This document shows, in pieces, positions 10,537-64,000 of a stretch of DNA of 64,000 nt; the first letter of the stretch is position 1, and every line of letters starts with the position of its first letter. The translations under genes were made by a program, and so were the position numbers. The notes beneath the pieces are model-generated. The model searched no databases. It saw only the letters and a program-made list of their open reading frames with translations, and was not told the origin of the DNA. This DNA is from Dictyostelium discoideum (lineage: Eukaryota), in the NCBI GenBank assembly GCA_000004695.1, contig CM000154.2, positions 4,384,001 to 4,448,000 of the forward strand, given 5' to 3'.

Positions 10537-13916
<3,380 letters not shown>

Positions 13917-22091: not shown

Positions 22092-25000
22092 ATTAATTGA
22101 TATTTACATATTAATTTTGGTGGTGAAATTACATTTAGATCAGTATCAAGTAATCAAAGACCTATTTATTCATTATCAACATCATTCAATAATATTCAAA
22201 TTTATGTATCACCAAGACCAATCTCTGGTAATGCAAATAATATTACCTACATAGTTTATTGCCCTCGTTTTGAAAAAAGTGGAAAACAAGTATATAATTT
22301 AAACTCATTTTTACCATTTGGTAATGCTACTATATCAACAATAAGTATAGTATAGATATCCAATTATATATATTTTTAAGTATAAATACTAACAAAAAAA
22401 AAAAAAAAAAATTAATAGGTAAATTTTATAATACTCTAAGTATTTTTAATAATAATTCAGCAAATATAATTTCAAATAATCAAATAGGTGAAGCATCATT
22501 TGATCTTTCATTTGAAAATTTAAAAGGTTACGATTTTAAAACATATCAATACCAATTTAAATCAGGATCATCTATATATTCAGCATTTCCATTTGGATTT
22601 AAGAGTGGAAATAATTCAAAATTTAATTATTTAGCATCGTTTTTAACATCTAATCAGTCAAGTAATCCCACTTCGGAATTAAAAGTTGATGAAATTACAT
22701 TTCAAGTAACTCCTAATCAATTGGTTCTCACAACAGATGATACTCTCCGTATTGAAGATTTAAGATTTTTAGAAGCCACCAATTTTAAATTTGTAATTAG
22801 AATTATAGCTGGTAGTAAATATTTAGTAAAATACTTTATTATACCATTAAAAAATGGTTTAAATATAAAGATTGACAATAGTAATGTTATTTCTCAAAAT
22901 TTATTACTTGGAATTTGGGAATATATTTTCGATGCTTTTTCATATGGAACTGATTTTGAAGGTAATATTATTATCTATAATTTCAATGATCAACAAAAAT
23001 CATATTCATTAGGATATCCATATGATGCAAAAAAACCTAACAATATTTTATCATTACCAAAAACTGATCTATCAAGTAAGTATACTTTATTAATTTTATA
23101 AAATTATTATTAAAAAAAATTTAATTCTAATTAAAAAATTTATTATTATAATTAAAAGATTGTAATTATTTACAAGATATTAAAAATATTTCATTTTTAA
23201 ATAATAATATTGATTTAACTAATCAAAATGTTGATAATATGATATATTTTTCATTTGGAAATAATAATAATAATTATATTACAAAATCAATTGGATTTTC
23301 ATTAACTGACCCAAAATCATTAAGAGATCAAGGTTTTAATGGTGATATTTCAAAGTATTACAATACAAAATTAACATTTGCAAAATTTGATTCAATTAAT
23401 AATAGATTTAGTGCACCATTTAAAATGCCAGCCAATATAGTACCAGGTCAGTTGGATTATACTATAATATTTGATAGAGATAATATTATTCCAAGTGTAG
23501 CATTACCAATGGAGTATCAATTAAATGTTACAAGTTCAAATGTTGATATTCAAGGACCAATGATAACAAATATAATTTATAATTATAATTCAATTTCTTT
23601 TGGTTGGACAATTACAATTGAAGACTCAATAAATGGTTTTGATAGTGGTTATATTCTAATTAGAGGTGTAATTGATAATTCATTATACAATATTTCATTC
23701 TCAAATAGGGATGGTAAAAATGGTAATAATAAATTTAAAAACAATTATGATATTCTAATAGAATTAGATAAAACTCATAAGTGTACATCACAAAATTATT
23801 CAATCAATTATGTTTATTTAGTTGACACATTTGGTAATGAAGCAACATTTTATAAACATGCAACTGATATACAATTAAATAAAATGGTTTATAATTCGGA
23901 TTCAACTGGTAATCCATTAATAAATTTTATAAATCAACAAAATTTATTTAGTATTTTATCACCAGATTATTGCAACTCTCCTCAAGTTGATTCAACAATT
24001 ACTTTACTTAGTTTTAATACAACCACTACTGAAATAGATGCTGGTTCAATTAATAGATCTGTAACATTTGATTTTGAAGTACAAGATTCTGTTTGGGGTT
24101 TAAAAAAAGATCAATATCCAATGGTTTATTTAATTTCTCAAGATTTTAAATCGGTTCAATGTGTCTCTAAAATTGTATCTTTAAATGATTTTAAAGGTGT
24201 TTATCAATGTACTTTTGATCAATTACCACTAGGTTTTGGCTTTCCAAATGGTTTGAGTATATCAGTTTATGGTTTCATTAATAATGGTGGTCAATTTTAT
24301 GGTTTCTCATCATCAATGTTAAAGAGTTTAGGTTTTAAAAATTTTATAAGTGTTTTACACTATAATCCAAATTTAATATTCATTACTGGTACAAGTGAGG
24401 TAACTGAATTAGATAGTGAATTCTTAATTTATGGAACTGCACTCACAAATGTTATTACAGCTAGAATAACTCTTTCAAATGGTACTCTTATAGAATGCCC
24501 TTGTAAAAGTACTTTTAATAGTATTCTCAAAGTTTTATTTTTCCCAATTGGTATTAAAGATCCTTTTACAATTACACTAAATGGAGTTTTAAATGATTAT
24601 TCAAATGTTTACCCGGTTACACCAATTCAATATAATTTCAAATATGAACCAATAATAACTGAAACTCCAATAGTTACATACCCACCTCAAAAATGTAAAG
24701 GCTCACCAGAATGTGGTGGTACATCCAATGGTTATTGTTCCAATTCAGGTTGTATTTGTTATTCACCATGGTTTGGAATTGATTGTACATCTCAAATTAT
24801 AACAGTAGCTCCACCATTGATTGATACTGATAAACCAATAACATCAATTGATGTACCAAAAGATTCAAATGGTAATAATATAAAATCAATTATATCAATT
24901 GTTGCATTAAGAGAAATTAATTCAGTAACAAATGAACAAATTAAAATTCACTATTTTGAAAAATGGATTTATAAAAATATCTCCTCAACGATTTCACAAT

Positions 25001-25722
25001 ATACAAGTAATATTACAAATGGTGATGGTGATGATGGTAAGCCAATAACCACTACAACCATCACAGCAACTTTAGAATGGTTTTCAGAGAGTAGAAATAT
25101 TTCTTTCGCAAATCAACAATTAATTATGAATCCATCAAGTATGAAATATACCATAGAACTTTCATCATATGCTTTTTCAAATTCATTATCAAATTTACAA
25201 GTGGTAATGTCTGCTCAAATTCAATCAAACCAAAAAAATATTTGTTCAGATAAAGATTTTGGAAATACTACAATGGAAAATTCAAACTATATAAAATTAC
25301 AAGTCGCATCTAATAGTTTCTATGGAAGATATATTAAACGTGGTATTGTTGATGGTAAATTCATTACGGTTGAAAATGAAATTTTAGATTCAAAATTTAA
25401 TGCAATTCAAAGTGAAAATACTGCTCAAACTTTTATTGGTATTTTAATTGGAAGATATGTAAATTATGCTATTATAGATCCAGACTTTTCAATATTAATT
25501 GAATCAAACTCTGCCAATTCCAATTCTCCAAATTCAATTTGTTCAGCATCAAATTCAACAAAAGTTTCAACTGGACAACTTATTGGTATAATCATTGGTT
25601 CTTTTATTGCTTTCTTATCATTGTTAATAATTGTTTTATTCCTTATGTATAAATCTCCTCATTGTTTATTTTTTAAAATTTTTATTTATAAAATTACTAA
25701 AAAGTCAAAAATAAATAAATAA
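21679..25722 (+). CDS. Type I transmembrane glycoprotein with IPT/TIG-like and EGF-like extracellular domains (Tgr-like architecture). Exons are 21679..22024, 22144..22344, 22419..23075 and 23159..25722.
   Basis: ATG at 21679 with a signal peptide MYGNRILFFLILFSLLCLVNG. Exon 1 to 2 uses donor T|GTAAGC at 22025 and acceptor atcAG at 22143; the alternative, donor GT at 22023 with acceptor tttAG at 22138, adds 2 aa. Exon 2 to 3 uses donor A|GTATAG at 22345 and acceptor attaatAG at 22418, with a tactaac-like branch point. Exon 3 to 4 uses donor A|GTAAGT at 23076 and acceptor aaaAG at 23158. All three junctions are phase 1 and frame-consistent. The last exon has an IPT/TIG-like segment (PNLIFITGTSEV..LIYGTAL.NVITARITLSNGTLIECPC.....L.V.F.PIG......ITLNG) and an EGF-like module (CKGSPECGGTSNGYCSNSGCICYSPWFGIDCTS). 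There are many N-x-S/T sites, a TM helix LIGIIIGSFIAFLSLLIIVLFLMY, and a short basic tail. Confidence 0.65.
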
Positions 25723-26370: not shown

Positions 26371-28340
26371 TTATACAATAATACGAAGATTTGTATTAAG
26401 ATTATTATTTCTATTATTAGAACCACGATTACGACCTCTAGTTACATATAAGACTGATACAATAGTTGTTGAGGTTGGAGGGTAAAAATAAGAATCTAAA
26501 TTAACCAAATAACTACGAAGCAATAACTCTTTCATGAACTGTACACCTTGAGTATTGATATTGTTATGGTTTAATTGTATTGAAGCCAATGATTGATTGT
26601 ACCATAGAGCTTCACATAAGGCTTTAGCACCATCATTTGTGATACCATTACCAGAAAGGTTTAATTCAGTGATTGATTGATTTTGTTTTAATGAATCACT
26701 TAGAGCTCTACAACCTTCATCACCAATTTCATTTCCACGTAATTGAAGATCGGTGATTGTTGAATTTTGACGTAATGCTTCACCCAAACGTTTTGCACCA
26801 ATTGGACCCAATCCATTGGTACACATTGAAAGTTTTGAGATTTTCTTATTCATTGCTAAACCCTCAGCTATATGAATTGCACCAAGGTGACCAATTTCAG
26901 GATTGATTGAGAGATCTAGTATCTCTAAAGATCTATTTGTTTTCAAAGCATTACCAAGTGAAGTGGCACCGCTTGCACCAATATTATTGAAAGCCAATGA
27001 TAAATTAATGATTGAATGATTTTGAGCTAGAGCATCCCCCAATTGAACGGCACCTTTATCACCGATTGAATCACCGGTCAAATCGAGATAGGTTATAGAT
27101 TGACACATGGATAAAGCGGCAGCCAATGGTTTTAAACCTTTGTAATTGAATTCGTTTCTTGACATATCGAGATAGGCAATCGTTTGACTGGCTTGAATAC
27201 CTTCGGAGATATATTTCATACTTTCGGGTGATAGTTTAGTATCACATAAATTTACAGAAGCAAGACAAGGATGTTTTCTAATGGCTTCACCAACGTATTT
27301 CGAACTCTTTTCATTGAGATCATTCTTTGAAAAGTCAACCTCTGTTAGTGAACTATTCTTACCAATGGATTCCACGATGAAATCGATACCTTTGGCGCCG
27401 AATCTATTTTTAGAGAGATTAATGGTTTGTAGGATCGTAGTGGATTGAAGTGCTTGACCCAATGCTTTTGAGCCTTTGAGACCAATACAATTTTGTGAAA
27501 GATCCAAATTGATTAGGGTGGTATTTACCAATATCGCTTTGGAGATCTCTTCGGCACCCTCATTACCAATGGAATTAAAACTCAAATTCAAATGAGTGAT
27601 GGTTTTATTTGCCAACAAACATTCACCAATACAATGTGCTGCTTTATTTCCAATACCATTTTGTGAGAGTTCCAATGTCGTGATTGTGGTATTTTTGGTT
27701 AATAACATCCTAACAAAACTTGATACATCGAAAAGGGTAGGTGTTGATACCTTTAGTTGAAGGTTTATTAAATTTGGATATACATTATTTGAAAGATTAC
27801 GAAATAAATTGGTAATACTACGATCTGGTGGTAATTGATAGGTATAATTAACTAATCTTCCAACTGATATCTTTCTCCATTTACTACATACACTACATAT
27901 GTTTGTAAAATTTTGTGAATTTGGTTCATCTTTATGTGCTTTACCCAAAATATTGGAAATAATAATATCTGCTAATGATCCAATAAATGGTGGTCTTTCT
28001 CCTGGTTTTAATAATATTTCTGGTGTTTCATATGTTATATTATTTGGTGCTGATTGATTATTATTATTATTATTATTATTAGGCGGAGTGGTTGATGATG
28101 TAACCCGTGGTGATTGGTTTGATGCACTACTTCCACTTCCTGCCATTAAATTACTTGATGATGATGATGTCGACTCCTCAATCGAATCTGAATTTGTTAA
28201 ATTTGTTATTGAATTATCGTTTTTATTAAAATTATTGTTATTATGGTGACTTATTTGTGGCGATGATGTTGGTTCTTGTTGATTACCATTCCCTTGGTTA
28301 TTATTGTGGTTATTATAATTATTGCTATTATTATTATTAC

Positions 28341-28380
<40 letters not shown>

Positions 28381-28806
28381 GTTATTATTACTATTATTAT
28401 TTGATTGGAAATGATAATTTTGTAAATGTTGATGAATATGGTGTTGTTGCATATGATTTATTGGGTGATTATTGTTATTACTATTATTATTATTACTATT
28501 ATTAATATTATTATTATTACTATTATTATTACTATTATTATTGTTGTTATTATTACTATTATTATTATTATTATTATTGTTATTATTGTTATTATTATTA
28601 CTATTACTATTACTATTACTATTACTATTACTATTACTATTACTATTACTATTATTATTATTATTATTATTATTATTTTTATCCAAACCAGGTTGGTGAT
28701 ATGATGCTTGATCTGAAATATCTATATCCTCTTTTTTTATTTGCGTCTCTAAATTGTTTGATTGATCTTGTCCTGATATAAAATAAAATTGATGATCAAC
28801 ATTCAT
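26371..28806 (-). CDS. F-box/LRR-repeat protein (RNI-like leucine-rich repeats) with an Asn/Gln/His-rich N-terminal region. Single ORF.
   Basis: ATG at 28806. Low-complexity poly-N/S/Q N-terminus. An F-box-like motif follows: GSLADIIISNILGK...FTNICSVCSKWRKI. Then come about 14 RNI-type LRRs (L.LS.N.IG..GA..L..AL..N.T), each roughly 28 residues. Confidence 0.7.
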
Positions 28807-35332: not shown

Positions 35333-35989
35333 TTATTGTGATAATTGTTTTGGTGGAGATGAATCAATTACAGATTCCAAATAATGATTTATAATTGGTT
35401 GTGATTCTAAAAATAGAGAATGAAGCATATCTTTTTTAAATGGTACAATCATTTCATTATTATTTATAAATTCTTCAAAACCAAACCATTTACATTCTTC
35501 AAATTCCGGTTCCTCTTCAACATTTAAATTGACAGTTTTAATTAAATCATTTGGTAAGTAAAATAGATACCAATGTATCATTTGTCCAATATGACCACCA
35601 CTTCTAGATTTTGGTGAATCTTCATAAATGTAAGATAATGGATTTTGAAGCTTTGAAACGTATTTTAATGTATCAATTGATGGCTCTAATCCAACTTCCT
35701 CTTTAATCTCTCTTTGTACTGCTACATAATAATCTTCATTCTTTTCAACTTCTACTCCACCTTGTGGAAATTGCCACTAAAATAAAATAAAAATAAAATA
35801 AAAAAAAAAAAAAAACAAATTAGAAATAATAATAATAATAAAAATGAATAAATAAATATTTATAAATGAAGATATAATTACTTTTCCAACAGCAGTTTTC
35901 TTTTTAGATGATCTTTTACAAATTAAAACTTGATTGTTTTGGTTAAAGATTAATGCTCCAACACAACTTCTATATTTTGCTTCATTCAT
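35333..35989 (-). CDS. Nudix hydrolase (RppH/Ap4A-hydrolase-like). Exons are 35989..35882 and 35776..35333.
   Basis: ATG at 35989 gives MNEAKYRSCVGALIFNQNNQVLICKRSSKKKTAVGK|GTAATT (donor at 35881, phase 0). The acceptor ttttAG at 35778-35777 leads into WQFPQGGVEVEKNEDYYVAVQREIKEEVGL.... This carries the Nudix box GG.E..E......A..RE..EE.G. The GKWQFPQGG context is typical of the RppH/NudH subfamily. Confidence 0.75.
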
Positions 35990-37496: not shown

Positions 37497-39041
37497 TTAT
37501 TTATTTCTAATTTTTCTTTTAATTGAAACTCTTTCTAAATTATAATTTGAACATTCAAAAGCTTGAAAAGGTGGAACGAAATGAATATAAGTTCCAATTG
37601 TTATACAAGCAATAATCGGACCAACCATATATGGCCAAATTTTATTAAATATTCCAGTTACAATTGCCGGACATAAACATCTAGCCATATTAAATCCAAA
37701 TATATAATTTGGTGAAATACCAGATGATGCAATAATTGAGAAACCTAATGTAATTGATATGAAAAATGCACCAACTGCTCCACCAATTATTGGAGTTTGT
37801 CTTCTATCCAGGGCAGTTCCAAAAGCAATATACAAATTTAACATTGAAAACATGAATTCCATACCAAGTGCTCCACCACTACTTATATCACCACCATATG
37901 TACACATACCTAAATTTGTCCTTTTCATAACTTCGAATGGAATTATACCTCTAATAATCGCTGATCCAATTATACCACCTGTAATTTGAAAAATAATATA
38001 AAATAAACATCTTATAACTTTTTTTTTATTACACCCCACTCTATTAATATAAAATTATAATTATAATAAATTATAATAAAATTAAATTAAATTAAATTAA
38101 ATACATACAGGATGTATAACCTGAAAAGAAAGTTGCAATTGTAATTGACGGATTTAAATGACCACCACTAACAGGGGCACAAGTTAAAATTAATAAGTAT
38201 AATAATGGTACATGTAAAACAGCAGAAGTTGCAGGCACTCTATAATTTGGTACAGAATTTACCAATGTTTCACCATTAAAATCATTAAGATTTGATATAT
38301 ATGAATAATCAAAATAATTTACAGACGAAATGAAAATACCAATTGACATAAATAAAAATAAAGCACTACCAATCATTTCTGTAACTGATGCTTTGTATAA
38401 TTTACTATCGAATAATTCATTGTATCCTGATATTCTTATAATTTCATTTATTAATTTATCTTTAAATTTTAATTTATTTATTTCACTTTTTTCATCAATT
38501 GATGATTGTTTTGATTTTAAATCTTTTTCACTATTCTCATAATCATCGTCATCATAATTATAATATTCATCATCTTTAAATGACTTTGGAGATATTAAAG
38601 TACTACTTGTATTATTATTATTATTATTGACACTATTACCACTACTACCACTTCTATCACTTCTACTATTATTACTAATATTTGATTCAATATCATAGTT
38701 TATGGGTATTTCTAAATCTATTTCATCATTTTCAATACCATCATTATGATGTTGATTTTGTTGATGTTGATGATGTTCAAGATGTTGATGATGTTGATGG
38801 TGTGGGTGGTGTGGATGATGTTGATGGTGTTGATGGTGTTGACTTTGATAAATATGGTGTATTGTATGTCTTTTTCCATAGTCATTATATTCATCATTAT
38901 TATTAGAACCATACCTTATTAAGCTAGCATACTTATAAAATGGAGCTGCTAATTCATATCTAATTTTTTTTCTTCTCCTTATACTTATATTACTACTATT
39001 ACTATTTCTACTACTACTATTACATGTACTTGGACTTTTTA

Positions 39042-39110
<69 letters not shown>

Positions 39111-39147
39111 TACTACTAATACTATTACTATTACTATAACTACTCAT
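37497..39147 (-). CDS. Major intrinsic protein (aquaporin family) with a long Asn/His/Gln-rich N-terminal extension. Exons are 39147..38109 and 37978..37497.
   Basis: ATG at 39147. About 250 aa of N/H/Q/S/D-rich low complexity follow, including HHQHHQHHPHHPHHQHHQH. The first half of the MIP fold ends ...SGGHLNPSITIATFFSGYTS, then the donor T|GTATGT at 38108 (phase 1) and the acceptor ttacAG at 37980-37979 give C-GIIGSAIIRG.... The second half, FGFNMARCLCPAIVTG, sits in the position of the second NPA box. Hydrophobic helices are typical of MIPs. Confidence 0.75.
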
Positions 39148-40300: not shown

Positions 40301-40631
40301 ACTGGTCCAGTATCTTCCAATTATTTAAATAAATTTCAATAAAATAATAAAAGGAAAAAAAAAAAAAAAAAAAAAAAGAATTTAAATAACAATTATCTAA
40401 ACAATCAAGAAAATCCATTTTTTTTTTTTTTTTTATTTTTATTTTTTTATTTTTATTTTTTTATTTTTATTTTTTTTTTATTTTTTTTTTTTCAAATTTT
40501 TTTTTTTTATTGAAATAACTTGAAAGTAGGAAACGACTCATTTCATTATCAAACTTTGTCGATTTTTTTTTTTTTATTTTTACCACTTATCCAATTATAT
40601 TCGAAATATAAAATAAAATAAAATAAAAAAA

Positions 40632-42532
40632 ATGACACAAACTCAATTTCAAGTAGTAATTTTAGCAACTGATAAAGCATCAGGAAATTCTAAATTAGAA
40701 CCAATTGATGCTACAATCCCACATTCATTATTACCAATTGCAAATAGACCTTTAATTTCATATCAATTAGAATTCTTAGAGAAAGCTGGTTTTGAAAGTA
40801 ATAATCACATCATTAATAATAACAATAATAACAATAATAATTGTTTTGTTATTGATATCAATACCAATCATCTGATAATAATCATCATAATTATTATTTC
40901 TTACTAATTTTTTTTTTAAAAAAATATTTATATTTATATATAGCTAAAAGTGAACCAGTCATTATTGTAGTTAATGAAACATCTCAAGAAAAGATTAAAC
41001 AATATGTATCAGAAATTTATAAAGGGAAAATTGAAGTTGAATTCTTTGTTTTAAAGGATCAATTAGCAACTTGTGAAATTTTATATAGAATTAGAGATAA
41101 AATTAGAGTAATTATTTATATATAATTTTCATCCACAACAACAACAACAATAATAATAATAATAATAATAAAAATAATAATTAAAAAAAAAAAATTGAGA
41201 AAAAGTTTGGAAAAATAATAAAATAATAGTAATAATATTTCAAATACTAATTAATATATATATGTATATTTATCAATCAATAAATCCAATAAATCAATAT
41301 TATTATTATTAATAAATCAACAATAAAATTTAATTTTCAATTATATATGTAAATATAAAGTTGGAATATTTTATGGTATTAAATGCAAATTTAGTTTTAG
41401 AGGATACATTCATTAGACAAATGGCAGATTTACATAGAAAAGAAGAAAGTTCACTTACAGTTTTATTAAAACCACCAACTCCAAAAGTTGAACAAAAAGG
41501 TAAAGGTGCAACTGAAACATCAACTAAACAAGATAAACTCTTTACTGATTATATCGCTTTAGAAGAGAAATCTCAAAAAATAGTAATGATGGAACCTGCA
41601 ACTGAAGTTGAAGAAGATTTAAACTTTAATAAATCATTATTAAAATAGTAATATTTATAATTTAATTATATCTATATTATATATATAATGAATATATAAC
41701 AAATAACTAACCAATTAAATTAATTTATTAGTTTCCCAAATGTAACGATTTATACAAATTTACAAGATACTCAACTTTATATCTTTTCAAGATGGGTATT
41801 AGATTTAATTATTGAAGATCAAAAAGAAAAGTATCCATTATTCTTTGATATTAAAAAACATTTAATTCCATATTTATTATCATGTCAAATTCCAAATATT
41901 AAACGTAAGAGAGCATTACCAGCAAGTGCATTCAATCAAAATCAAACACTCTCTCAAACTATGTCATCAACTACCTCACCTTTTGATCAATTCTCTGAAT
42001 TAAATGCTCAAAAGAATAAAACAATTAAATGTTTTGCTCATTTATTAAAAAAAGAAGGTTATTGTATGAATGTAAATACAATTAAAAATTATCAACAAAT
42101 TAATAGAGATGTAAGTTTTAAACAATTTTATATTTAATATATTTATATTTATTATTTTAATTAATAAATATCATATTTATTTATTTATTTATTTATTTAA
42201 AAAAGATTGCAAAAGGTGATTTACAATATCTACCAAATGAACCAAAATCAGAAAAGAACTTTTTTATCGATCCAACAGCAAATGTTACAATTACTCAAGT
42301 TGGTCCACAATGTGTAATTGGTACAAGTACAACATTGGGTGCTAAATGTAGTGTTAAATTCTCAATCATTGGTAAACATTGTAAAATTGGTGATGGTGTT
42401 CGTATTGAAAATTCAATCATTATGGATCATGTAATCATTGAAGATAGATGTGTTATTAATAGTTCAATCATTTGTAATGATGTTTATATTAAATCTGGTT
42501 CTTCAACTGTTGGTCAATATTTAACAAAATAA
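40632..42532 (+). CDS. eif2b3: Translation initiation factor eIF2B gamma subunit. Exons are 40632..40797, 40944..41107, 41361..41647, 41732..42110 and 42206..42532.
   Basis: ATG at 40632. The N-terminus FQVVILATDKASGNSKLEPIDATIPHSLLPIANRPLISYQLEFLEKAGFE is collinear with human EIF2B3 (FQAVVMAVGGGSRM...[31 protein letters not shown]). Donors are GTAATA at 40798, GTAATT at 41108, GTAATA at 41648 and GTAAGT at 42111. Acceptors lie at 40943, 41360, 41731 and 42205, and phases 1, 0, 2, 0 are all consistent. The last exon is left-handed beta-helix hexapeptide repeats (GAKCSVKFSIIGKHCKIGDGVRIENSIIMDHVIIEDRCVINSSIICNDVYIK), typical of the eIF2B gamma/epsilon C-terminus. Total length is about 440 aa, close to the human 452. 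Confidence 0.7.
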
Positions 42533-42906: not shown

Positions 42907-45500
42907 TTACATTTTATCCCAAGACCAAACTTTAAGATTACTAGCTAATGAACCAGTAAATAATTGATTTTGATTTCTCCAAAGACAAAGAATTGAAGAT
43001 CTTGTATTGAGAGAAGCTAAATTTTCGTATTTATCATGACTGAAAACTTGTAACCAATCACCGCTACCTGCAAAGATACCTTGATTAGTGACGTGAAGAG
43101 TTTCAACACGATCCTTACATTTGATGGTATTGACGCAACGTGTAGTTTTAAGATCCCAAATTCTAATAGTTTCATCATGAGAACCACTGTAGAGCATATT
43201 GTTATGAGCGTAAAGTGTTTTGACCCAACCTTCATGACCTTGGAAATTGGTGAGAATAGTACCAGTAGCTAAATTCCAAACGTAAATTTGTTGATCATTT
43301 GAGCCAGAGAATAAGAGATTACCCATTGCGCAAACCGATTTAATGGCACGAGTATGACCTGATAAAGTTTTAACGCATTCATATGATCTCATATCCCAAA
43401 CTTTAACGGTTTTATCGTTGCAACCAGTGTACAATAGATTGTCTTGAATGAAAATGGTATTGACTTCGTTGGATTCTTTGATCTCTTTGATGGTTTGTTG
43501 AGTGTTGATATCCCATTCCTTAACCAAAGAGTCTGCACCTGCTGTCAAAATATTTTGATCGAAACCTGGACGTTTAATGACTGCTCTAATCGATTTACCA
43601 TGTGCTTTAATGTTGGTAACATGTTTCAATTCAACAGCATCCCAAACACCGATTTGGCCATCATTTGAACCACTATATAATCTTAAACTATCACCAGTGA
43701 TACATTCTGATTGTAAACCTCTAACTGTATCGATATTCTTTATTGATGTTAAATCCCATTTTTCAAATTCTGAACGATCTGGTGTTTGTTCCATTGATGA
43801 TGTTGATGTCGATTCTGGTGTTGGAACATTCGATGATGATGTTGACGATGCTGATGCTGCTGCTGATGATGGTTGAATTGGTTGTTGTGGTGGTGGTGAA
43901 TTTCTAGAAACTTGAATTGAAATTGGTGCTGCATTTGTAGTTGATGATGATGAAGATGATGAAGATGATGATGATGATGAAGATACGCTACTACTATTAC
44001 TGTTAACACTACTACTATTGCTACTATTATTTATATTATCATTATTATTATTATTATTATTACTATTATCATTGTTACTGCTGATGCTACTATTATTATT
44101 ATTTATATTATCTTGTTCTAATTTTACATTACTATTTTCTTTTGGTGGTGATACAGGTGATTTATTTACTACATTTGATTGTGAAGGTGTTTTTACAATT
44201 TGAGGTACAGGTTTTGAAGTTGGTGAAGAAGGTGATTGCTGTTTATGTAAATTATTACCAGATGGTTGTTTAACCAATGGTGGAGAAGGTTTACTTTTTT
44301 GTTGTTGTTGAGCTCTAATTCTTTCCAATTGTTCTTGAAGCATTTTCTCTTCATCATCTAATGAGATTGGTTGTTGAGCACCACCACCATTTCTAAAGTA
44401 ATTCATATCGTAGTTATTCTTTGGACCACTACCATTACCATTCAACCCGATTGCATCATGGAAATCCATTAATTGTACGACGGGTAATGTACCTCTTAGG
44501 AGGGCTTTCTTTGATTGATTGATTGGTTTCAACTTTAAAAAGTCACAAACTGGATTACACTTGTGTGTTTGAAGGAATTTGTGGAAACCCGTCTCGCCCA
44601 AATTACCCTCGCCAAAGCCCTCGCCTGATTTCGTATGAATTTGAGGATCAGTGTAGAAATCGTTGACACCTTGGATATCAACGATCAACAATTCATGATT
44701 GGAGAGTTCGTATGAGAAATGAGAGAATGATTGTGGTGTATTTCTAGCATCACTACTAACGTAACCACTGTTGTTGTTATGTTTCTTGTAATCTCCCTCA
44801 ATGAATGGTTCACCACCACAAACTGGATAAGGTGGTGGATGATCAATCAATTCGTAAACGTATGATGGTAAGAATGTAATTGGTTTTGGTGGTTTCGCTT
44901 CATTGAATTTCTCTGCCCATTTAGCACAAAATGTTTGCATCAATACATCTGTAAAGTATGAATCTCTTGTCGTCTTTTTATTGGTTGAAAATTTACCAAC
45001 TAATCCTTGATCTGGTTGACTCCAATCCTTTAATTTATGTGCTGTTCTACAACTACCCTTTGCAAATGGAGTCTTCTCAATTGAAACACATACAATACTA
45101 TGTGTCCATTTTGGTTTTAAATCATCACCAATTGTTAATTCCCATCTTTTTTTTTTAATAATAAAAAATAATTATTAGTAAATTTAATAATAAAAATTGA
45201 AAAAAAATTGAAAAAAAAAAAAATTAAAAAAAATTAAAACCATACTTTATTGCTCTTTCACATTTTGTACCTGCAATAACATCGGCAACTGGGAATTTTT
45301 GATTTAATAATGCCAAAGCTGTCATTTGAAAAATAAATAAATAATAATAATAAAATTTTAGTTTTATTAGTAATTTGTTCAACTTTTTTTAAAAAAAAAA
45401 AAAAATAGGTTTCTATGTAGTATAAAAAATATAAAATAAAATAATATTTATTTAAAATTGATAATTTACCTGCTGCTGCTCCTGTTTTTTTTTCTTCCAT
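42907..45500 (-). CDS. Alpha-kinase/WD40 protein of the myosin heavy chain kinase (MHCK B/C/D) type. Exons are 45500..45470, 45318..45246 and 45145..42907.
   Basis: ATG at 45500 gives MEEKKTGAAAG|GTAAAT (phase 1). The acceptor gacAG at 45320-45319 leads to ALALLNQKFPVADVIAGTKCERAI, then the donor AA|GTATGG at 45245 (phase 2) and the acceptor aaaAG at 45147-45146. Exon 3 begins KWELTIGDDLKPKWTHSIVCVSIEKTPFAKGSCRTAHKLKDW... and continues to ...DIQGVNDFYTDPQIHTKSGEGFGEGNLGETGFHKFLQTHKCNPVCDFLKL, the alpha-kinase catalytic domain including the GNLG and CN..C motifs. A Ser/Asn/Gln/Pro-rich linker follows, then seven WD40 repeats (GSNDGQIGVWD, GCNDKTVKVWD, GSNDQQIYVWN, GSHDETIRIWD ...). Stop at 42907. 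Confidence 0.75.
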
Positions 45501-48003: not shown

Positions 48004-48254
48004 ATTTTGTTTAAAAAAAAAAAAAAAAAAATTTTAAATGTAAATGGAATTAATAGGTTTATGATTGTAGTAAATTCCATTCACTTCACCCAGGTGAAGG
48101 TATTAATGATCAATATATCGCAGATCATGCAGGTAAAGATTGTACAGATTTATTTGAAAAATTCCATAATAATGACGAACCATTTGAAATGTTAGAAAAT
48201 GCACAAGATGGCAAACAAGAAGGTATAATTTATATTGGCGAATTAGAAGAATAA
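47661..48254 (+). CDS. Small cytochrome b5-like heme-binding domain protein of 91 aa. Exons are 47661..47738 and 48057..48254.
   Basis: ATG at 47661 gives MARTVTKEEVAKHNTRDDCWLIIHGK|GTAAGA (phase 0). A 318-bp intron follows, containing an A-tract of about 60 and a (TTTA)n repeat. The acceptor aatAG at 48055-48056 leads to VYDCSKFHSLHPGEGINDQYIADHAGKDCTDLFEKFH..., the cyt-b5 core (HGKVYD..KF...HPGG) with HPGEG in place of HPGG. Stop at 48252-48254. Confidence 0.75.
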
Positions 48255-54039: not shown

Positions 54040-55610
54040 TTAGTTATTGTTATTATTAATATTTTTTAAAATGATTGATTCATTAATTTCCCAATCTTGA
54101 TGATTATAAGAACCAATTGAAGTTAATAATTCTTTTGTGCTATTTGACATTTTGAATAAACTATTGATTTTAAAATTTGATACCATTAAATTTTGATTAT
54201 CGTGAATGTGGAATGTTGAATATCTTTTGGAAGACATTCCATTTGATTTTGAAACTAATTCAATCCATTCTTGGTAATCAATCTCTTTGCAATTGTAATT
54301 ATTTTCTAAAAATTTATAAATTGATTTCATTTCAATTGAATTACCATTTAAACTGTAAATTGAAATTGGTTTTGATTTATTTTGATTCCAACTGTTTTCA
54401 TTGAATATTAAATCGATTGTGGTTTTAGCTATAGTTGTAACTGGAGTTGTGAAAATTGATTTATAAATATTTGGATAATAACCAATCTCTTTTGAAGTTT
54501 TTAATAAAAGTGATACGAAATCATTTGAATGACCTATACCTGTTATTGGATTTGAGAATATATCTGTATTTATTATAATAATAATAATAATAATAATAAT
54601 AAAATGTTTATTTTATTAGAATCTATAAATTAAATATTAAAGGTTTATCATATATGATCTATATTTATTAATTACATACCAGGTGGTCTAATAATGATTG
54701 ATGGTATACCTCTTGATTCTGCTGCGTTTGTTAATAATTTCTCTGAAATAACTTTACATTGAATATATCCAATTGGTGTAGTATCAAAATTTGGTAATAT
54801 ATTTGTTTCTTCAAATTCTTCTCCATCTTTAAAAGGATGATTAATAAATACTGCAATTGATGAAAAATGAACTATTAACTTTTGTGAGCTATTATTTGAA
54901 ACTGATAATTTTACAATTTGATTGACGCTGTTAACATTTACAGTTTTACTTTCTTCGTAGTTTGATTTTAAATTTAAATCTGCTGCTGAATTTATAATAA
55001 TATCACATTCATTTGATAGTTTTAAATAATCTTGTTCAGTTAAACCAAATTTATCTTTTGAGATATCACCAATCATTGGAATGATTTTAATTAATTGATC
55101 TTCACTTATTTGTTTATAATATTCACTATTTTCAATATTACTTAATTTATCATTTGATATATTACCTGTATGATTGATTATTTTTGTTAATCTTTGATTT
55201 GGTGATTCTTTGTTCATATTTATTAATTGATGTTTCTTTAAATTATTAATAATTACATCGATTGGATTTGTTAATTTTGAATTATTTCTTATTAAACAAT
55301 AAATTTTTGATATATTGTTCATTTTAATTAATTCTGTTAATAAATATGCACCCAAGAATCCTGTTGAACCTGTTAAGAATATTGATTTACTATTATTACT
55401 TTTATTTAATATATTTTTAATTGAATATGGTCTTGAAATGATTGATTCATTTAATTTCATTTCATTTTTAATAAATTCATCAAGTGATTGTTGTTCTTTT
55501 TTAACCAAATTATTATTATTATTGTTATTTTTATTATTATTAATATTATTATTAATATTATTATTATTTTTATTATTATTATTATTATTATTCTTATTAT
55601 TATTATTAAT

Positions 55611-55641
<31 letters not shown>

Positions 55642-58600
55642 TTATTATGAGCAGATAAAATAATTTCAATTGATTGATTGATTTTATTATTTTGTAATTG
55701 TTGAATTGTGATAATATTATGACCTAATTGATTATCGATAAAATTCTTTAATTGTACAATCACTAAACTATCCATACCATATTGTGTGAGTTGAAGGTCT
55801 TCATTGATTTTAGATTCATCAATTGATAATAATTCACAAATCTTATTTAAAATTGTCGAACGAATAATTTCATTATTATTATCACCATCATTACTACCAG
55901 TGAAAGATTTGATTTGATTTGATTTTTTAACAATATTAATTTCAAAATCAAATTTTGAATGGTATTGATTTGTTAAAGTTGATGGTAAAATTTCAAAATT
56001 GAAATCTGATAAACAATAGTTTGGATATTGATGTTGATTTTGAATGAATAAATCTAATGAACTAATAACGAGTTGAGGTGAGAATAGTTTTAAAATTGAA
56101 CTCTTGAACATTGTTTCAATTGCATTATTACGTGATACGAAACCAGTTGATGATATCGCACCTAAATTAATGGCTAAAGATGGTAATCCAATTGAATGTC
56201 TATACTTTGATAATGAATCGATAACACTACATGCACTAACATAACAACATTGTTGATCTGATCCCAATATTGAGACTACTGATGATGCCATTATAAATTG
56301 TTTGATATTCCATGAACGATTAATCGATTGATTGTGAAGATTGATTGCTCCAATTGTTTTAGCACCATGTGTATTATTTAAACGATTCATATCGACTTGT
56401 TGGACATCACCAATATCATTCATAAATGCAAAATGAATGATTGAATCAATATTTGTAATATTTTCATTTAATTCTAATTGATTTAATACTTGATTAACTT
56501 TATTTGAATCTTCAATATCGATTTGATTGAAATGGAATTTAATATTATTATCTTTTTTAAATTTGCTTTGATTGATTAATAATTCTAATTCCCATTTTAA
56601 TTTTGATTTTGAAAGTATTATTATATTTTCAATTGAATCATTTGAATATTTAACCAAATATTTTAATATTTCTAAAACAATACCAGTTTGACCAGTGAGT
56701 AAAATATTCTTACCAATATTTAATTTTGAAATATCATACGAATGTTTCAATATGATTTGATTGTTATTACTTTGATAATTATTATAAACTCTATTAAATT
56801 CATCTTGATTGTGATTAACAATGATTTTACCAATATGTTTTCTTTGATTTATATATTCAATTGCATCTTTAAATTGATTATTTGAATATTCAATGATTGG
56901 TACACTTAACTCTAATTTATTTGAATTAATCATTTTGATAATTTTCTTTAAATAGCTTTTGATTAATTTACTTGTGAAATCTTCTACATACACATTACCA
57001 TAGTTCATATTAAATTTGTAATGATTGTTTGTCATATAATCATTTGATGTGAGATGAATGATACTTAAATCAACGATACGTCCTGATAAATTTAAACATT
57101 GGAAATTTGAATCCATATACTCTGATGATAATGTATTTAATATTAAATCTACACCTTGTTGATGTTGTTCAACTACACCTAATTCTATTAATTTATTCTT
57201 AATTTCATAAACATAATCTTTATTACGAGATGAATAGATAGCAGTAATTAATGATCCATATTTATTTATTAAATATTCTTCTTTATCTTTTGAACCAACT
57301 GTTAAAAATATATAACCTTGATGTTGTTTACTTTTTAATAAATCTAAAGATGATATACCGACACCACCTGCTGCTGAATGAATTAAAATTGATTCATTTG
57401 ATTTTAAACTACCAATACCATAGAGACTATGTAATGATGTAATATAAACAGATGGTATTAAGGCTGAAACTGAATGACTATAATTTAATGGTTTATAATA
57501 AATGTAATCATAATCTACAATAATATGAGAACTACTTGTTTTTGAGCCGACACCACAAACTTGATCACCAACTTTAAATTTCTTTACATTACTACCTAAT
57601 CTTGTGATTATACCGCTAAAGTCTTTACCAATTTTTGGATTATTAAAACCAATACAATTTTCAATTTCTTTACCATATTTAATATCTAAATTCGTACCAA
57701 TCATACCGATATACATTAAATAATCTTTATAATTCATACCAGTTGCTTTAATTTCTATCTCTACTTCATTTGAATTTAATTTATCTTTTTTACTATATAA
57801 TTGATATTCTAAATTTGAATTTAATTGAATACATAAATTATCTTTATTGTTTTCAAATGATTTAGATTGAAGTTTTGATTTAATATTATTTGATCTTCTA
57901 CAATATCTTTCATAGTATACTCTATTATTGTTAATCGTAAATTCTTTTTGAATATTATTATTTGGATTGATTAAATAATTGATTAATGATAATTGTTGAT
58001 TATTTTCAATTGAAACATTATCATAATTTAAAGTTAATAAATCTAATTGTGGGAATTCAACGAAATAACGAGCAGCACCAACAATTGATGATGATAAATA
58101 ATTATCAGTGCTTGAATTTAATGATAATAATAAATGTTTGAAATTATTTGATAATTCTAATTTTAATATTAATTGATTAATTTGAATGTATTCAAATGTG
58201 ATCTCTTTGAAATTTGAAGTATTCATTATTGATTCAATTGATTTTAAAAATATTATTAATGTTTTATTACAATCATCTTTAGTTTGATTATTTGTGATCC
58301 ATGATTGAAATTCATTAAAATTATTAATATTAATGATTTTATGTTTTAATTCTTGATTTAATGTTATTGAATCAAGAATACTACTGCAACTATTTCTATT
58401 ATTATCACTATTATTATTATTATTATTATTATTGTTATTACTAAATAAAATAATATTATTGAAAGAATTTAATTGATCTAATGATATTGATTGTTCTGAA
58501 ATGATTTCATTAATTGTTGGTTTTCTAGTTTGAATTAAAAATAGTAAATTATCATTACCAGACATTATTGTATCTCTATAATTACATTGATTTAAAAGGT

Positions 58601-61600
58601 TGATCCATTTCTCTTGTTTCATACAACATCTATCAGGTCTTAATTCGATATCACTATCAGAGGATGGCCACCATTGTGAAAAACAACCGAAAACAGAATC
58701 ATAAATAAATGATTTGTGTGGTGGTTCTATTAATAAAAGTTGACCATTTGGTGTTAATATATTATGAATTTCATTTAATGTTGGTTTGAGTTTCTTAACG
58801 ACATGCATAACATTTGACATTACAACGAAATCATAATAGGATGCTTTAAGATCTTGATCTAATAATGGTTTTTCTAAATCTAATACACGATAGATAATAT
58901 TTAAATTGTTGCGATTTGTAAATGATGAGAACTTTTCTTTAATTTCAGCGAAAAATGATGCAGATATATCACTCCATGTAAATTCTATATTAATGATTGA
59001 TGTTGTACTATTATTATTTAATAATTTACAAATCTTTTCTAAAATTAATAAACTAAGACTACCAGTACCGCCACCTGCTTCTAATATACGAAATACAATT
59101 GGTTCATTTAAAATTGGTTTTAGAGTTTCGACTATAATTTCACTTAATAAACTATTCAATGGTTGAACTACTCTTGAATTCTTATAAAAGTCATCAAGAT
59201 AACCACTTTCAAATAATGATTGTGGTGTATCTGTAATGGAATCATCATCTTTTAATGGGAATAGCTGTTTTGCCATTATTTTAGTTGTTCTAATAAATAA
59301 CTCTTCATTTTTTGATTTAATATTACTGTGATCATTGTCAAGGTTAACAATATTACTGTATTTCTTTAAATTTTCAAAAATGAATTTGAAAAGATTTTCA
59401 TTTGCAGAACTATTATAATATAATTGTTTAAATTGATTATATTCTAATGTTGTTAATGATTCTAAATTGATACTTGGACATCTATTATTAATATGTTTAT
59501 AAAATAATGACAATAATGATTCATTTGAAAGAAATTGATTATCTTCTTCTTTGACACTAAATTCATCTACTCTATATAAATGTTTGAATTGTTCAGGTTT
59601 ATTAATTACTGAATCTTTTGATTGAAGATATGGTGTATAGATATTATTTGATGGTGGTTCACATATTATTGTGCTATCAGGATTGGAGTCAAGTGAAACT
59701 AAAGCGCAAACCACATTTGAGATATCAACTAATAATGTACCATTTGGAAGTATGATTTTAACTGATATTGAATATGTTTGAGAATTGGTTCTTGGTTTAA
59801 TATCTGAAAAAACATATAATTCTTTAATATCATCATCATTATCATCATTATTGTTGTTATTTTTATTTAATGATGGAATGTTTGAAGAGTAATATTTGAA
59901 ACCTTCAATTTTATCAAGTACTACTGGTTGTGTGACTGCAACTAATGACCCATGTAAACAAGTATCTAAAATTGCTGTATTTAAAAATGTATTCATATTG
60001 CTATTGTTTATTAAATGATTATATTCTTTTTGATTGTAAATTTCATTTAATGATACTATTGCTAATGAACAATTATTACCGATATGACATTGTTTTACAC
60101 CTTGAAATAAACCTTTGTATGTTAAATTTGTTTTAATTCTAATAGTTTCATAAAAATCTTGTTTTGATATGCTTGTAAAATTACATTTATCTTTTAATGA
60201 TTGAATATTAATTAATTTGTTACTGATGATACTGTTGTGTTTGGTTAAACTAAAATTACCAAGAGATGTTAATATCCATTGATTTGTTTTTTGATCTTTG
60301 TAATAACTTTTGATATTGAATTCATTCTTTGATAGTGGTGCAATTGTAGTTTGTAAACATTGTCTATTACCTTCTGTTAATACTAATGGTGATTTAAATT
60401 CTAATGAGCTAATTGTAATATCTTGATTTGGATAAATTGATAATAAATTGTGAACATATCCCATTCCTGGATAATAGAATTTATCACTAACTTGATGACC
60501 TTTTAACCATTGGAATGGTGATTTCTTGATATCGATAAATGTTTGATATGATGGGTTAGGTGAATCTGTATTATTGCCAAGACCATGAATGGATGGACCT
60601 TCACTTTTAATCTTTTCAAGTAATGAGTTTAGTTTAAAGTATTCTTTATCATCCCATTGGTAAAGTGGTAAATTATTTAATTGGTTTGAATAGTTATTAT
60701 TGTTGTTGTTGATTAATTGTGATTTGAAATTAATATCAAAATTATTTTTGACATATAATAAAGAGATTGTCTTTAAGAATTCATTATAATCATTCTTCTT
60801 TTTATTTAATGGTGAATAGATTGTAATGTTTTTACCATTATTAAAGTAACTTGATTGAGTTGATTTCATTTGATTTAAGTAATATTGTAATGTTGGATGT
60901 GGTGAAACTTCAATGAATGTAATTTCATTACCCATATCATTTGATTCGATATGTTTGTAAAGATTTGTAATTGTTTGTGTGAAATATACTGGTTGAATAA
61001 TATTATCAAATACATAATTTGCATTGAATGGCGAGCTTTGATGATTGAATAAATTGGTTGTAACTGTTGAAAATACTGCTATCGATGGTTGTTTTGATGA
61101 AATATTTAATGAACATACTTCATCTTTAATCATTTGTTGACTTGATGTATGAAATGATGATAATGATCCTAACATTGAACAAAAGATATCATTTGATTTG
61201 AATTCTTTGGTAATTTCATTTAATAAGTCTTCTTTACCTGCGATAACGATTGATGTCGGTGAATTGTAACATGCAATTTCTAATGATTTATATTTAGTTG
61301 TAGATTGATATTTATTAATGAATTCATCTGAACTAATATTAACTGATAACATTCTACCTGTACCTGTGGTTCTATTTTGAGCTACTGATCTATGGTAAGT
61401 CAAGTAACATAATGTTTGAAAATCAATCATACCTGAACAATATGGCGATGATACTTCACCAAGAGAATGACCAATGATAATATCTGCTGAAACACCCCAA
61501 TGTTTATATAATTCATAGAGTGATACTTGAATCATTACATTTGCAGGTTGTGCTAAAATTGGTTGATGAATTGATATTAAATCTTTATCATCAATTGATC

Positions 61601-64000
61601 TTAATTTATCTAAAACTGAATAACCATAATATTTGAATAACTCTTTATCGAATCTATTGACAGATTCTCTAAATATTGGTTCATTATCATATAATGATAA
61701 TGCCATTTTATTATATTGTGAACCTTGACCACATAATACCATTACTGTGATTGGTGATTTCTTTTTTTCAACTGTAATATTTGAAATTAAATTATCACTA
61801 TTATTTAATTTAATTTGATTATTTTCATCTTGAAATTCATTCCAATCACTTGCGATTATAACTGATTTTTGAATTAATGATGTTGATTTGAATTTAATTT
61901 GATTATATACAAATTCTTTGAAACTTGTTGTTGTTGTTGTGGTTGATGAATTTGAATGTTTAATTATTGATGATTTATAATTATTTAATGATGTTGATGA
62001 ATTACTTGAGAGTGGTATTAAATATTTCTTTTTTTCTTCACTTAATTTATTATCAATTTCCATTTTGTGATAATCATTATGATTATTTTCAAATTCAGAT
62101 AATATTAAACAAACATTTGAACCTAAATTAAAATTGATTTTAAATTGTTAATATAAATTATTTGGAAAAAAATTATAAGATGATGTAAATATTTACCAGT
62201 TATACCGAAATTATTAATTAACATGACAGTTGGTTTATTTTCATTAAATTTAATTGGTTCAGTGACAACTTTTAATCCCCATTCTTTAAAATTAATTAAT
62301 GGATTTGGTTCTTTGAAATTAATATTTTGAAGAAATAGTTTATTTTTAAACATTAAACAACATTTAATTAATGATGCAACTCCTGAACATGCTGTTATTA
62401 TTTTTTATTATTTATTATTATTATTATAAATAATATTTAGTGTTAGTAATTAATGATTGACTATGGTTATTTATACAACTAAATTTAATTAACTTACCTT
62501 CAGTATGACCAATATTTGATTTAATTGATCCAACTAAAACTTGTTTATTATTATTATTTGTTGTTGTTGATGCTATATTATTGAAAACTCTTGATATACC
62601 TTCTAATTCTATTGGATCACCAGTTGGAGTACCAGTACCATGAGTTTCACAATAATCAATATCAGATTCATTGATTTGACCATTGGTTGATTTGATTGCT
62701 AATTTGATATTTTCACACTGAGATGATTTCGATGGTGAATAAAAGTTTAATTTATCAAAGTTACCATCGATATTTGAACTTGATCCTTTGATTACACAAT
62801 AGATGTTATTTGAATCTTTGATTGCATCTTTTAATTTCTTTAATACAACGATACCAACACCTTCTGAACGAACATAACCATCAGCATCCGATGAAAATGT
62901 ATGACATCTACCTGTTGGACTTAAAAGACCTAATTGAGTAAATGATTTTGAAAGGTGTGGGTCTATAAATAAATAAAAATTATTTGATAATTAATATATA
63001 ATCTTTTTCTTTTTTTAATTTTTAATTTGTCACATACCTAATAAAAAATTAACACCACCAACAATTGAAACATTTGATTTATTTGATTTAATTGAATTAT
63101 ATCCACAATTAATTGCATTTGATGAACTTGAACAAGCTGTATCAATTGTTAAATTTTCGCCTCTATTTTTTAAAAAAAATAATCATGATAATAACAGTTA
63201 GTATTATAATTAAGTTTTTAGTGTGTGCCAAAAAAGATAAATCAAAAACATACCTAAAATCAAAGCAATAACCTATTCTATTTGCAACGGAATGAGTTGT
63301 GGAACCAAAAATATTATTTTGAGTTTCAAATGGTGATCTTTGAAGAATAGAATAATCAATAGTACTACTACCAATAAATGTACTTGTATTGGTACCACGT
63401 AAACTAATTGGATCAATACCACTATCTTCTAATGCTTCCCATACACCTGTTTGTTGGTTTTATTTTAAAAAACATTATTAATAAATAAAAATAATTAATA
63501 ATTAAAAAAAAAAAAAAAAATGAAAAAATAAAAAAAAAAGTAGAAAAAAAAAAATTTAAAAAAATTTTTGGATTATTTATTTTTTTTTTTTTTTTGGCGC
63601 CATTGAATGAATATTTCCAAAACACTTAACAAATACATACATTTTAATAATAATCTTTGTTGTGGATCTATTGAACTGACATTATCATTGCTTGGATTAA
63701 TTGCAAAGAAGATTGGATCAAATTGTTTCCATTCATCAAGTGGAAGTAAACCAGCAAACTTTGAAACGATTTCACCATTTAAATAATAATTATCAGACCA
63801 TCTTTCAGAAGTTGTAACGATTCCATCTAATCCATTCAATAATTCATTAAATAATTGATTTGGTTTTGAAATTGATTCTTTTAAATTACCACTTGGAAAT
63901 CTTAAACCAATACCAATCACTGCAATATCACCACTATCAACATCATCATTATCATCATAATCATTTCTATCCCTTATTAATTTACTATTTCTAGTATTAT
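54040..64000 (-). CDS. Highly reducing iterative type I polyketide synthase (KS-AT-DH-cMT-ER-KR-ACP-R). Seven exons lie in the window: 64000..63641 (partial, N-terminus beyond the window), 63446..63254, 63162..63038, 62962..62498, 62391..62197, 62122..54680 and 54563..54040.
   Basis: KS domain (supported by motifs): [15 protein letters not shown]...DPQQRLLLK | [13 protein letters not shown]... | [22 protein letters not shown] (active-site Cys) | ...[20 protein letters not shown]...[11 protein letters not shown] | [16 protein letters not shown]...NNFGITG | [10 protein letters not shown]. Donors are GTATGT at 63640, GTATGT at 63253, GTATGT at 63037, GTAAGT at 62497 and GTAAAT at 62196; all acceptors and phases are consistent. 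AT domain (supported by motifs): GQGSQ and GHSLGE. DH (inferred from the region between AT and cMT): [10 protein letters not shown].. region. cMT (supported by motifs): [16 protein letters not shown]-binding. ER (supported by motifs): [15 protein letters not shown] (supported by motifs): [15 protein letters not shown] (supported by motifs): [14 protein letters not shown]. Terminal NAD(P)-binding reductase (supported by motifs): [15 protein letters not shown]. The last intron has donor G|GTATGT at 54679 and acceptor tacAG at 54565-54564, with stop at 54040. The ORF-track MEIDNKL start at 62063 is internal. Confidence 0.85.

Follow-up and report, generated by a model that had tools for sequence, protein, structure and literature searches.

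A two-exon Dictyostelium discoideum gene with both NPA boxes altered probably encodes a selectively maintained XIP-type member of the aquaporin family

What kind of channel, if any, is encoded by an aquaporin-family gene in which both NPA signature boxes deviate is the question raised by a locus on contig CM000154.2 of Dictyostelium discoideum (assembly GCA_000004695.1). The gene lies on the minus strand of a 64,000-nucleotide stretch (positions 4,384,001 to 4,448,000 of the forward strand), hereafter called the window, to which all coordinates refer. An earlier sequence-only reading had described it as a major intrinsic protein (MIP) gene with the boxes NPS and NMA behind a long N-terminal extension. 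Our analysis indicates, with a probability of roughly 80%, that the locus is a functional and selectively maintained two-exon gene for an MIP of the XIP type. This finding overturns nothing, since the family and its odd motifs were reported in 2008–2009 for DDB_G0274209 (XP_644262 / XM_639170, D. discoideum AX4), an apparent paralogue whose double NPA deviation was published then; the window gene probably adds a further member and a second copy.

The gene structure was determined from the open reading frames (ORFs) and their translations, together with comparison with related proteins. The outer limits given in the sequence-only reading (39147..37497) proved exact, and a 91-nt intron was absent from its description: the ATG at 39147 opens a 351-codon frame, a separate frame ends at 37497, and the intron joins both into a protein of 519 residues. 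The 91-nt intron model was preferred because its junction, GYTS-F-IRC, is identical in the D. discoideum and D. purpureum proteins, because the tblastn match to D. citrinum breaks at the same junction, and because the Pfam MIP score rose from 96.9 bits with an earlier splice model to 105.9 bits. In addition, the D. citrinum intron contains no alternative AG acceptor. Splice models with acceptors at 38039 or 38041 (526 and 528 aa) were rejected, as the resulting insert 'LGCNKKKV' occurs in no orthologue. The window has a G+C content of about 20% and poly-Asn coding runs, both typical of Dictyostelium, and a tRNA scan of its 64 kb found none.

The MIP fold proposed from the sequence was borne out by the Pfam MIP match (E = 3.5e-30). 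A sequence search of the PDB returned AQP2, AQP5, AQP4, AQP1 and AQP0 as the best solved relatives, followed by PIP, NIP and TIP proteins, with E-values down to 2.6e-16. In the alignment with human AQP2, SGGHLNPS is matched to SGAHINPA and FGFNMAR to CSMNPAR, and N332, N456 and R459 align with N68, N184 and R187. NPS and NMA thus sit at the two NPA positions, confirming that both boxes deviate; canonical boxes are common, and not obligatory, in the MIP superfamily. Furthermore, the AlphaFold2 model of the apparent paralogue (P0001) has a predicted local distance difference test (pLDDT) value above 90 through the membrane domain and superimposes on AQP0, AQP2, AQP5 and TIP2;1 with target-normalised TM-scores of 0.74–0.87 (among the 50 matches listed). 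By this comparison, the window protein would form the usual MIP pore of six helices and two half-helices.

The altered boxes could also mark a decaying or non-channel MIP relic, or NMA could be an assembly error. Besides the deviation of both boxes, this explanation draws on the Pfam score, 106 bits against 134–138 bits for plant XIP-like proteins, and on the NCBIfam MIP subfamily match (TIGR00861, E = 6.6e-26), which stays under the model's own cut-off. However, independent Logan assemblies of two SRA runs, with 98.9% and 99.4% DNA identity to the window, both encode FGFNMARC. A sequencing or assembly error at the NMA codon, which the sequence-only reading had itself raised, was therefore rejected. 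The D. citrinum orthologue carries NIA, with the codon ATT in place of ATG; these two codons are a single base apart, while ATG to CCG needs two or more changes. Between the window gene and D. citrinum, the 288-residue MIP region contains 12 residue differences (dN 0.026, dS 0.376, dN/dS 0.07), and the MIP domain is 96% identical in amino acids and 91% in nucleotides. The gene is under strong purifying selection. A pseudogene was likewise rejected on account of this dN/dS and the intact ORF and splice sites. As the substitution is moreover conserved across Dictyostelia, the probability that we are looking at a relic or an error is close to negligible.

The age of the second-box substitution was evaluated among dictyostelid relatives. 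A profile search of 1.84 billion cluster representatives yielded 3826 relatives, the closest of which are all dictyostelid. Their first and second boxes read NST and NIS in T. lacteum, NPV and NIA in one P. violaceum copy and NPT and NIA in the other, NPT and NMA in C. fasciculata, NPV and NIA in A. subglobosum, NPT and NMS in H. album, NPS and NIA in D. discoideum (DDB_G0274209), and NSS and NIT in D. purpureum, each second box being followed by RC. Among the sampled dictyostelid relatives as a whole, the second box takes the form N-[I/M]-[A/S/T], with R-C next in almost all. Judged from these sequences, the second-box Pro is replaced by Ile or Met in every sampled dictyostelid lineage, and Ile and Met have been swapped more than once. 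This proline replacement is old and fixed, and it is under purifying selection.

One H. album entry stands apart. Heterostelium album PPL_05741 (P0020, 710 aa) has the boxes NCT and SIN and a UniRef annotation as an endonuclease/exonuclease/phosphatase domain protein; it is a gene fusion or a merged gene model.

The family assignment within the MIPs was examined using the motifs that define XIPs. Danielson & Johanson (2008; PMC2386804) described a conserved Cys in NPARC and a second in the loop-C motif LGGC, for which a disulfide was proposed, and XIPs are recognised by the same LGGC and NPARC motifs (Ampah-Korsah 2017; PMC5345251). The window protein has both cysteines, C385 in LGMC and C460 in NMARC. 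The helix-E motif keeps Asn, Ala, Arg and the diagnostic Cys with Pro replaced, and the first-box Ala, for which XIPs carry V, L, I, S or C, is Ser. Among the 148 nearest cluster representatives, the loop-C Cys is present in 114, the helix-E Cys in 105 and both in 102, and the nearest named non-amoebal matches are plant proteins with NPV or NPT, LG(A/G)C and NPARC. Published work on DDB_G0274209 agrees: XM_639170 clusters with XIPs as a very divergent member whose NPA boxes and aromatic/arginine (ar/R) filter are unlike those of other XIPs (Danielson & Johanson 2008), and the protein was named DdXIP1;1 (Gupta & Sankararamakrishnan 2009; PMC2789079). In a 2024 MIP survey, slime-mould MIPs, among them the Dictyostelium XIP-like proteins, fall into MDC3, the XIP deep clade, and a different slime-mould clade, MDC1, lies near AQP11/12. 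Clustering with XIPs was thus judged from motifs and published trees, while the tree built here took in the dictyostelid copies. Because of the loop-C and helix-E cysteines, the 102 relatives sharing both, the plant matches with XIP motifs, the literature on the paralogue and a short loop D, the sequence evidence points to a protein of the XIP-type branch, neither a superaquaporin nor AqpB-like.

Within this branch the double NPA deviation is, by the sequence counts, ordinary, because the canonical first NPA is found in only 5 of the 102 double-Cys relatives and the second-box Pro is missing in 38 of them. The residues that take its place include W (13), I (7), F (3), A (3) and M (2), among others. 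Several unnamed double-Cys relatives (P0030, P0031, P0045, P0058 and others) read NWAIC, NWAMC, NWAQC or NWAEC; here Trp replaces the second-box Pro and the ar/R Arg is gone, a filter change more radical than that of the window gene.

N332 and N456 (the pore asparagines), R459 (the ar/R arginine) and C385/C460 (the XIP cysteines) are all retained, R459 and C460 following directly after NMA, and the two cysteines would link loop C with helix E. The predicted selectivity filter consists of His312, Ser or Ile in helix 5, Phe453 and Arg459; His is the most frequent residue of the His312 column among the nearest relatives. In the paralogue, the filter was modelled as H-I-F-R, bulky at all four positions (Gupta 2009; PMC2789079). 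Such a filter most likely passes small uncharged solutes (of the NH3, H2O2, urea, glycerol or boric-acid class) and is poorly permeable to water, as in plant XIPs. Plant XIP1 passes boric acid, glycerol, urea and H2O2, and not water (PMC5345251), and PfAQP indicates that substituted NPA boxes can be compensated (cited in PMC2789079). By analogy with the permeability of plant XIP1 and the tolerance of PfAQP, a small-solute channel with low water permeability is the most likely function. The earlier suggestion that function may differ from canonical water transport is therefore reasonable as an analogy with plant XIPs.

An ordinary water channel in which NPS and NMA are functionally silent, for example in osmoregulation or spore hydration, was also considered. 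The pore keeps its two Asn residues and the ar/R Arg, and PfAQP works with both of its NPA boxes substituted. The sixth residue after the second box is Ala and the transmembrane helix 6 (TM6) position is an aromatic residue, Y476; at what we take to be Froger positions, this is the aquaporin-like and not the glycerol-facilitator-like pattern. Moreover, no aquaglyceroporin structure, and no GlpF, AQP7, AQP10 or PfAQP chain, was found among the 35 PDB matches at E < 0.001. In contrast, His312, Phe453 and Arg459 are bulky, as are all four filter positions of the paralogue, the characterised XIP1s pass no water, and wild-type AqpB, another Dictyostelium MIP, is also water-tight when expressed. We consider a plain water channel unlikely, and the small-solute function remains the favoured one.

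To place the gene among its relatives, gene order around it was compared by tblastx. The D. purpureum scaffold GL871501 shares with the window the order cytochrome-b5, MhkC-like alpha-kinase/WD40, GMPPB-like transferase, MIP and NUDIX, and the D. citrinum locus on JBTAPK010000038 has the gene order of the window. The alpha-kinase/WD40 gene, whose kinase domain is 97% identical to D. purpureum over 279 aa, serves as the synteny anchor for the MIP gene. By position, the window gene is thus orthologous to D. purpureum DICPUDRAFT_9720 and to the annotated D. citrinum gene. The locus of D. cf. discoideum that carries the DDB_G0274209 orthologue shares only the MIP gene with the window. In a neighbour-joining tree, the window and D. 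citrinum genes grouped with the AX4 and cf. discoideum genes with 77% bootstrap, leaving D. purpureum outside. The simplest reading of these sequences is that two diverged copies exist within the discoideum complex, the window gene being the one at the ancestral position.

The annotated D. citrinum orthologue (L005:15588-17352) is deposited as a 547-aa protein without a Pfam match and appeared in neither protein search. When the same interval is modelled with a single intron, the product has 560 aa and its MIP domain is intact, so there may be a flaw in the deposited model or in how it was indexed.

Several points weigh against the reading as a functional XIP-type gene for a small-solute channel. 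Danielson & Johanson themselves questioned whether the amoebal protein works as plant XIPs do. Moss and fungal XIPs have hydrophilic filters, so that water permeability is possible (PMC2789079). The helix-5 ar/R residue is Ser by HMMER alignment to AQP2 versus Ile in the Gupta 2009 model of the paralogue, at a filter position where XIPs are known to be hard to align (PMC5345251). The structure model is that of the paralogue P0001 and not of the window protein, and the standing of DDB_G0274209 as a paralogue is itself apparent, resting on the neighbour-joining grouping and the lack of synteny. Furthermore, the Logan contigs retain the intron and are thus genomic DNA, which gives no evidence of transcription, and a literature search on the locus name DDB_G0274209 found no paper.

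The N-terminal extension was as long and as poor in complexity as the sequence-only reading had described, including the (HHQ/HHP)n tract. It comprises about 245 residues, with the Pfam MIP match starting at aa 248, and residues 1–235 contain 50 Asn, 36 Ser, 11 Gln and 21 His, the last confined to aa 94–134. This cytosolic N-terminus would be mostly expandable low-complexity sequence. That the His tract is a metal-binding or pH-sensing module gating the channel, as had been suggested, could appeal to its density (21 His in 41 residues, the strongest His-rich segment among the window ORFs), to its position directly after a conserved N-terminal island, to a shorter His-rich stretch at the same place in D. 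citrinum (HTIHHIYHQNHQHHHQQPHHLHH) and to an HHHHH run in the D. purpureum extension. However, the tract is encoded by a degenerate tandem repeat, and its length differs between the two closest species. In the dictyostelid alignment, no His tract was found at the matching position in DDB_G0274209, T. lacteum, P. violaceum, C. fasciculata or A. subglobosum, and the D. purpureum run lies upstream of the island, not after it. Outside the conserved islands the extension is about 73% identical to that of D. citrinum, with indels, versus 96% for the MIP domain, and most large ORFs of the window contain low-complexity runs. A conserved sensor was thus not supported, and a gating role of the tract is very doubtful. 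Because the tract is tandem-repeat coded, varies in length with D. citrinum and is missing at its position in other dictyostelids, it is most likely a slippage-prone, lineage-specific and incidental coding repeat.

A better regulatory lead than the His tract is a short N-terminal motif conserved far beyond dictyostelids. The stretch IRRRKKIRY..PFY..SLIRY (aa 56–79) is kept in both the window gene and DDB_G0274209, and the core F/Y-x-G-[GSA]-[LIV]-[IVL]-[RQK]-Y occurs in 35 of the 86 relatives with an N-terminus, compared with a shuffled expectation of 0.12. Every full-length dictyostelid member has it except one P. violaceum copy (P0018), and it is absent from the plant XIP-like matches. Among the relatives that carry the motif, the median distance from its end to the first box is 91 residues; by our estimate this would place it roughly 10–15 residues before TM1 in compact proteins. 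In the window protein it lies about 170 residues from TM1 because low-complexity sequence is inserted between the two. The paralogue model has a pLDDT of about 82 at the motif and below 50 in its flanks. A conserved basic stretch accompanies the F-x-G-x-L-I-R-Y island, and this island would be the most probable regulatory element, with a role in gating or trafficking. The RRRKK part of the basic stretch may serve in ER retention; VvXIP1 is reported to reside at the ER. As Tyr31, a conserved tyrosine in the N-terminus, closes yeast Aqy1, one may speculate that the dictyostelid N-[I/M]-A XIP-like proteins and a wider protist and fungal clade are N-terminally gated solute channels. The motif Tyr would then plug the cytoplasmic mouth, or dock on it, as Tyr31 does, and the His insertion that separates motif and TM1 in the discoideum/citrinum lineage would add metal- or pH-dependence. 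We regard this as a long shot. The features of the gene and its neighbours are listed in Table 1.

Table 1. Coordinates of the XIP-type MIP gene, its predicted features and the syntenic neighbours in the window.
Feature	Position	Strand	Basis and remarks
Predicted XIP-type MIP gene, 2 exons, 519 aa	39147..37497	minus	ATG 39147-39145, stop 37499-37497
Exon 1: N-terminal extension, TM1, long loop A, TM2, loop B half-helix with NPS	38109..39147	minus	aa 1-346 and first base of codon 347; ORF/translation; D. citrinum tblastn match stops at GYTS
Intron, 91 nt	38018..38108	minus	GTATGT...AAAAAAAAAG; 89% A+T; phase 1; donor 38108, acceptor 38018
Exon 2: TM3, loop C with LGMC, TM4, short loop D, TM5, loop E half-helix with NMARC, TM6	37497..38017	minus	aa 347-519 and stop; 95% identity to D. 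citrinum, 99% to Logan ORF P0004
MIP domain, aa 248-485 (span includes intron)	37602..38406	minus	PF00230, E = 3.5e-30, 105.9 bits, profile positions 5-216 of 222
Poly-Asn run, aa 15-35, 21 N	39043..39105	minus	TRF period 3, 32 copies, 39042-39137
Conserved island IRRRKKIRYELAAPFYKYASLIRY, aa 56-79, ending in a F-x-G-x-L-I-R-Y-type motif	38911..38982	minus	dictyostelid alignment
Motif proper, aa 70-79	38911-38940	minus	clade-wide in relatives P0014-P0076
His/Gln tract, aa 94-134, 21 His in 41 residues	38746..38868	minus	degenerate tandem repeat, TRF periods 9/18/27, scores 68-107; repeat spans 38746-38842
His312, predicted ar/R helix-2 position	38212..38214	minus	ungapped extension of AQP2 alignment; 20 residues before N332, like F48 before N68
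First NPA box = NPS, aa 332-334	38146..38154	minus	codons AAT CCG TCA; AQP2 alignment; NPS also in D. discoideum and D. citrinum
Loop C LGMC, aa 382-385 (C385), counterpart of XIP 'LGGC'	37902..37913	minus	Cys column conserved in 114/148 nearest representatives
Phe453, predicted ar/R LE1 position	37698..37700	minus	aligned to Cys181 of AQP2
Second NPA box = NMA, aa 456-458	37683..37691	minus	codons AAT ATG GCT; column-for-column with human AQP2 NPA
NUDIX hydrolase gene	35394-35971	minus	order shared with GL871501 and JBTAPK010000038
GMPPB-like nucleotidyl-transferase gene	40630-42530	plus	order shared with GL871501 and JBTAPK010000038
Alpha-kinase + WD40 gene	42907-45150	minus	94% identity to D. 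citrinum, 72% to D. purpureum 'myosin heavy chain kinase C'
Cytochrome-b5 gene	48042-48230		order shared with GL871501 and JBTAPK010000038

Elsewhere in the window, a 2463-aa ORF at 54672-62063 (minus strand), running on towards the window end, encodes a type I polyketide synthase of the highly reducing kind, which comprises acyl-transferase, dehydratase, methyltransferase, enoyl-reductase, ketoreductase, acyl carrier protein (ACP) and terminal reductase domains. Other genes encode a tRNase Z-like metallo-beta-lactamase (3215-5650, plus strand), a UBE2O-like ubiquitin-conjugating enzyme (10537-12186, minus strand), a ComC-like protein with DUF7034/DUF7035 and a supersandwich domain (23239-25722, plus strand), and an LRR_6 protein with long poly-Asn and an H/Q-rich stretch (26371-28806, minus strand).

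XIP-type MIPs are the least understood branch of the aquaporins, and none from an amoebozoan is known to have been assayed. Dictyostelium is a tractable organism, and ammonia, H2O2 and osmotic signals control its development.

The window protein was finally compared with known systems. AQP11, AQP12 and the SIPs resemble it in that their first NPA box deviates and their identity to orthodox aquaporins is low, but they keep the second NPA and lack the loop-C/helix-E Cys pair. Superaquaporins carry a Cys nine residues after the second NPA; here, the ninth residue after A458 is T467, and cysteines stand at +2 and +4. The superaquaporin kinship suggested by the sequence-only reading thus did not hold, the second NPA being lost and the XIP cysteine pair present. 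An aquaglyceroporin of the GlpF/AQP3 type has Asp after the second-box Arg, whereas R459 is followed by Cys. Kinship with the gated channel AqpB, also raised earlier, found no support either. AqpB stays closed until its intracellular loop is shortened, wild-type AqpB being water-tight when expressed, and its description sets it apart by a long loop D; that of the window protein (TALDRRQTPII) has only about 10 residues. AqpB and Aqy1, with its Tyr31 plug, offer possible regulatory analogies only. The likeness to Aqy1 gating is one of analogy, and the motif of the window protein lies far from TM1.

Plant XIPs (NbXIP1;1, PtXIP1;1, VvXIP1) are nearer, with a substituted first-box Ala, the loop-C Cys and a Cys after the ar/R Arg. 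However, they keep the second-box Pro, have aliphatic filters (V/I-T-A/V-R) without His or Phe, and lack both the F-x-G-x-L-I-R-Y motif and a 245-aa extension; identity to the window protein is about 28%. The orthologues DICPUDRAFT_9720 and the D. citrinum gene have their intron at the same position as the window gene. They differ in that in D. citrinum the second box is NIA, the His tract is shorter and the poly-Asn run longer, and D. purpureum has NSS and NIT in an annotated model that is partial, with an open frame continuing about 245 aa further upstream. DDB_G0274209 differs in its fucosidase neighbours and lack of synteny, in its length of 411 aa with a 140-aa extension free of His tract and long poly-Asn, and in an Ile where the window protein has the second-box Met. 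Nevertheless, it is 68% identical over the MIP domain and shares with the window protein NPS, LGMC, the N-x-A-R-C arrangement (N-I-A-R-C), the helix-2 His and LE1 Phe of the filter, and the RRR..IRY..PFY..SLI.Y island of the N-terminal extension.

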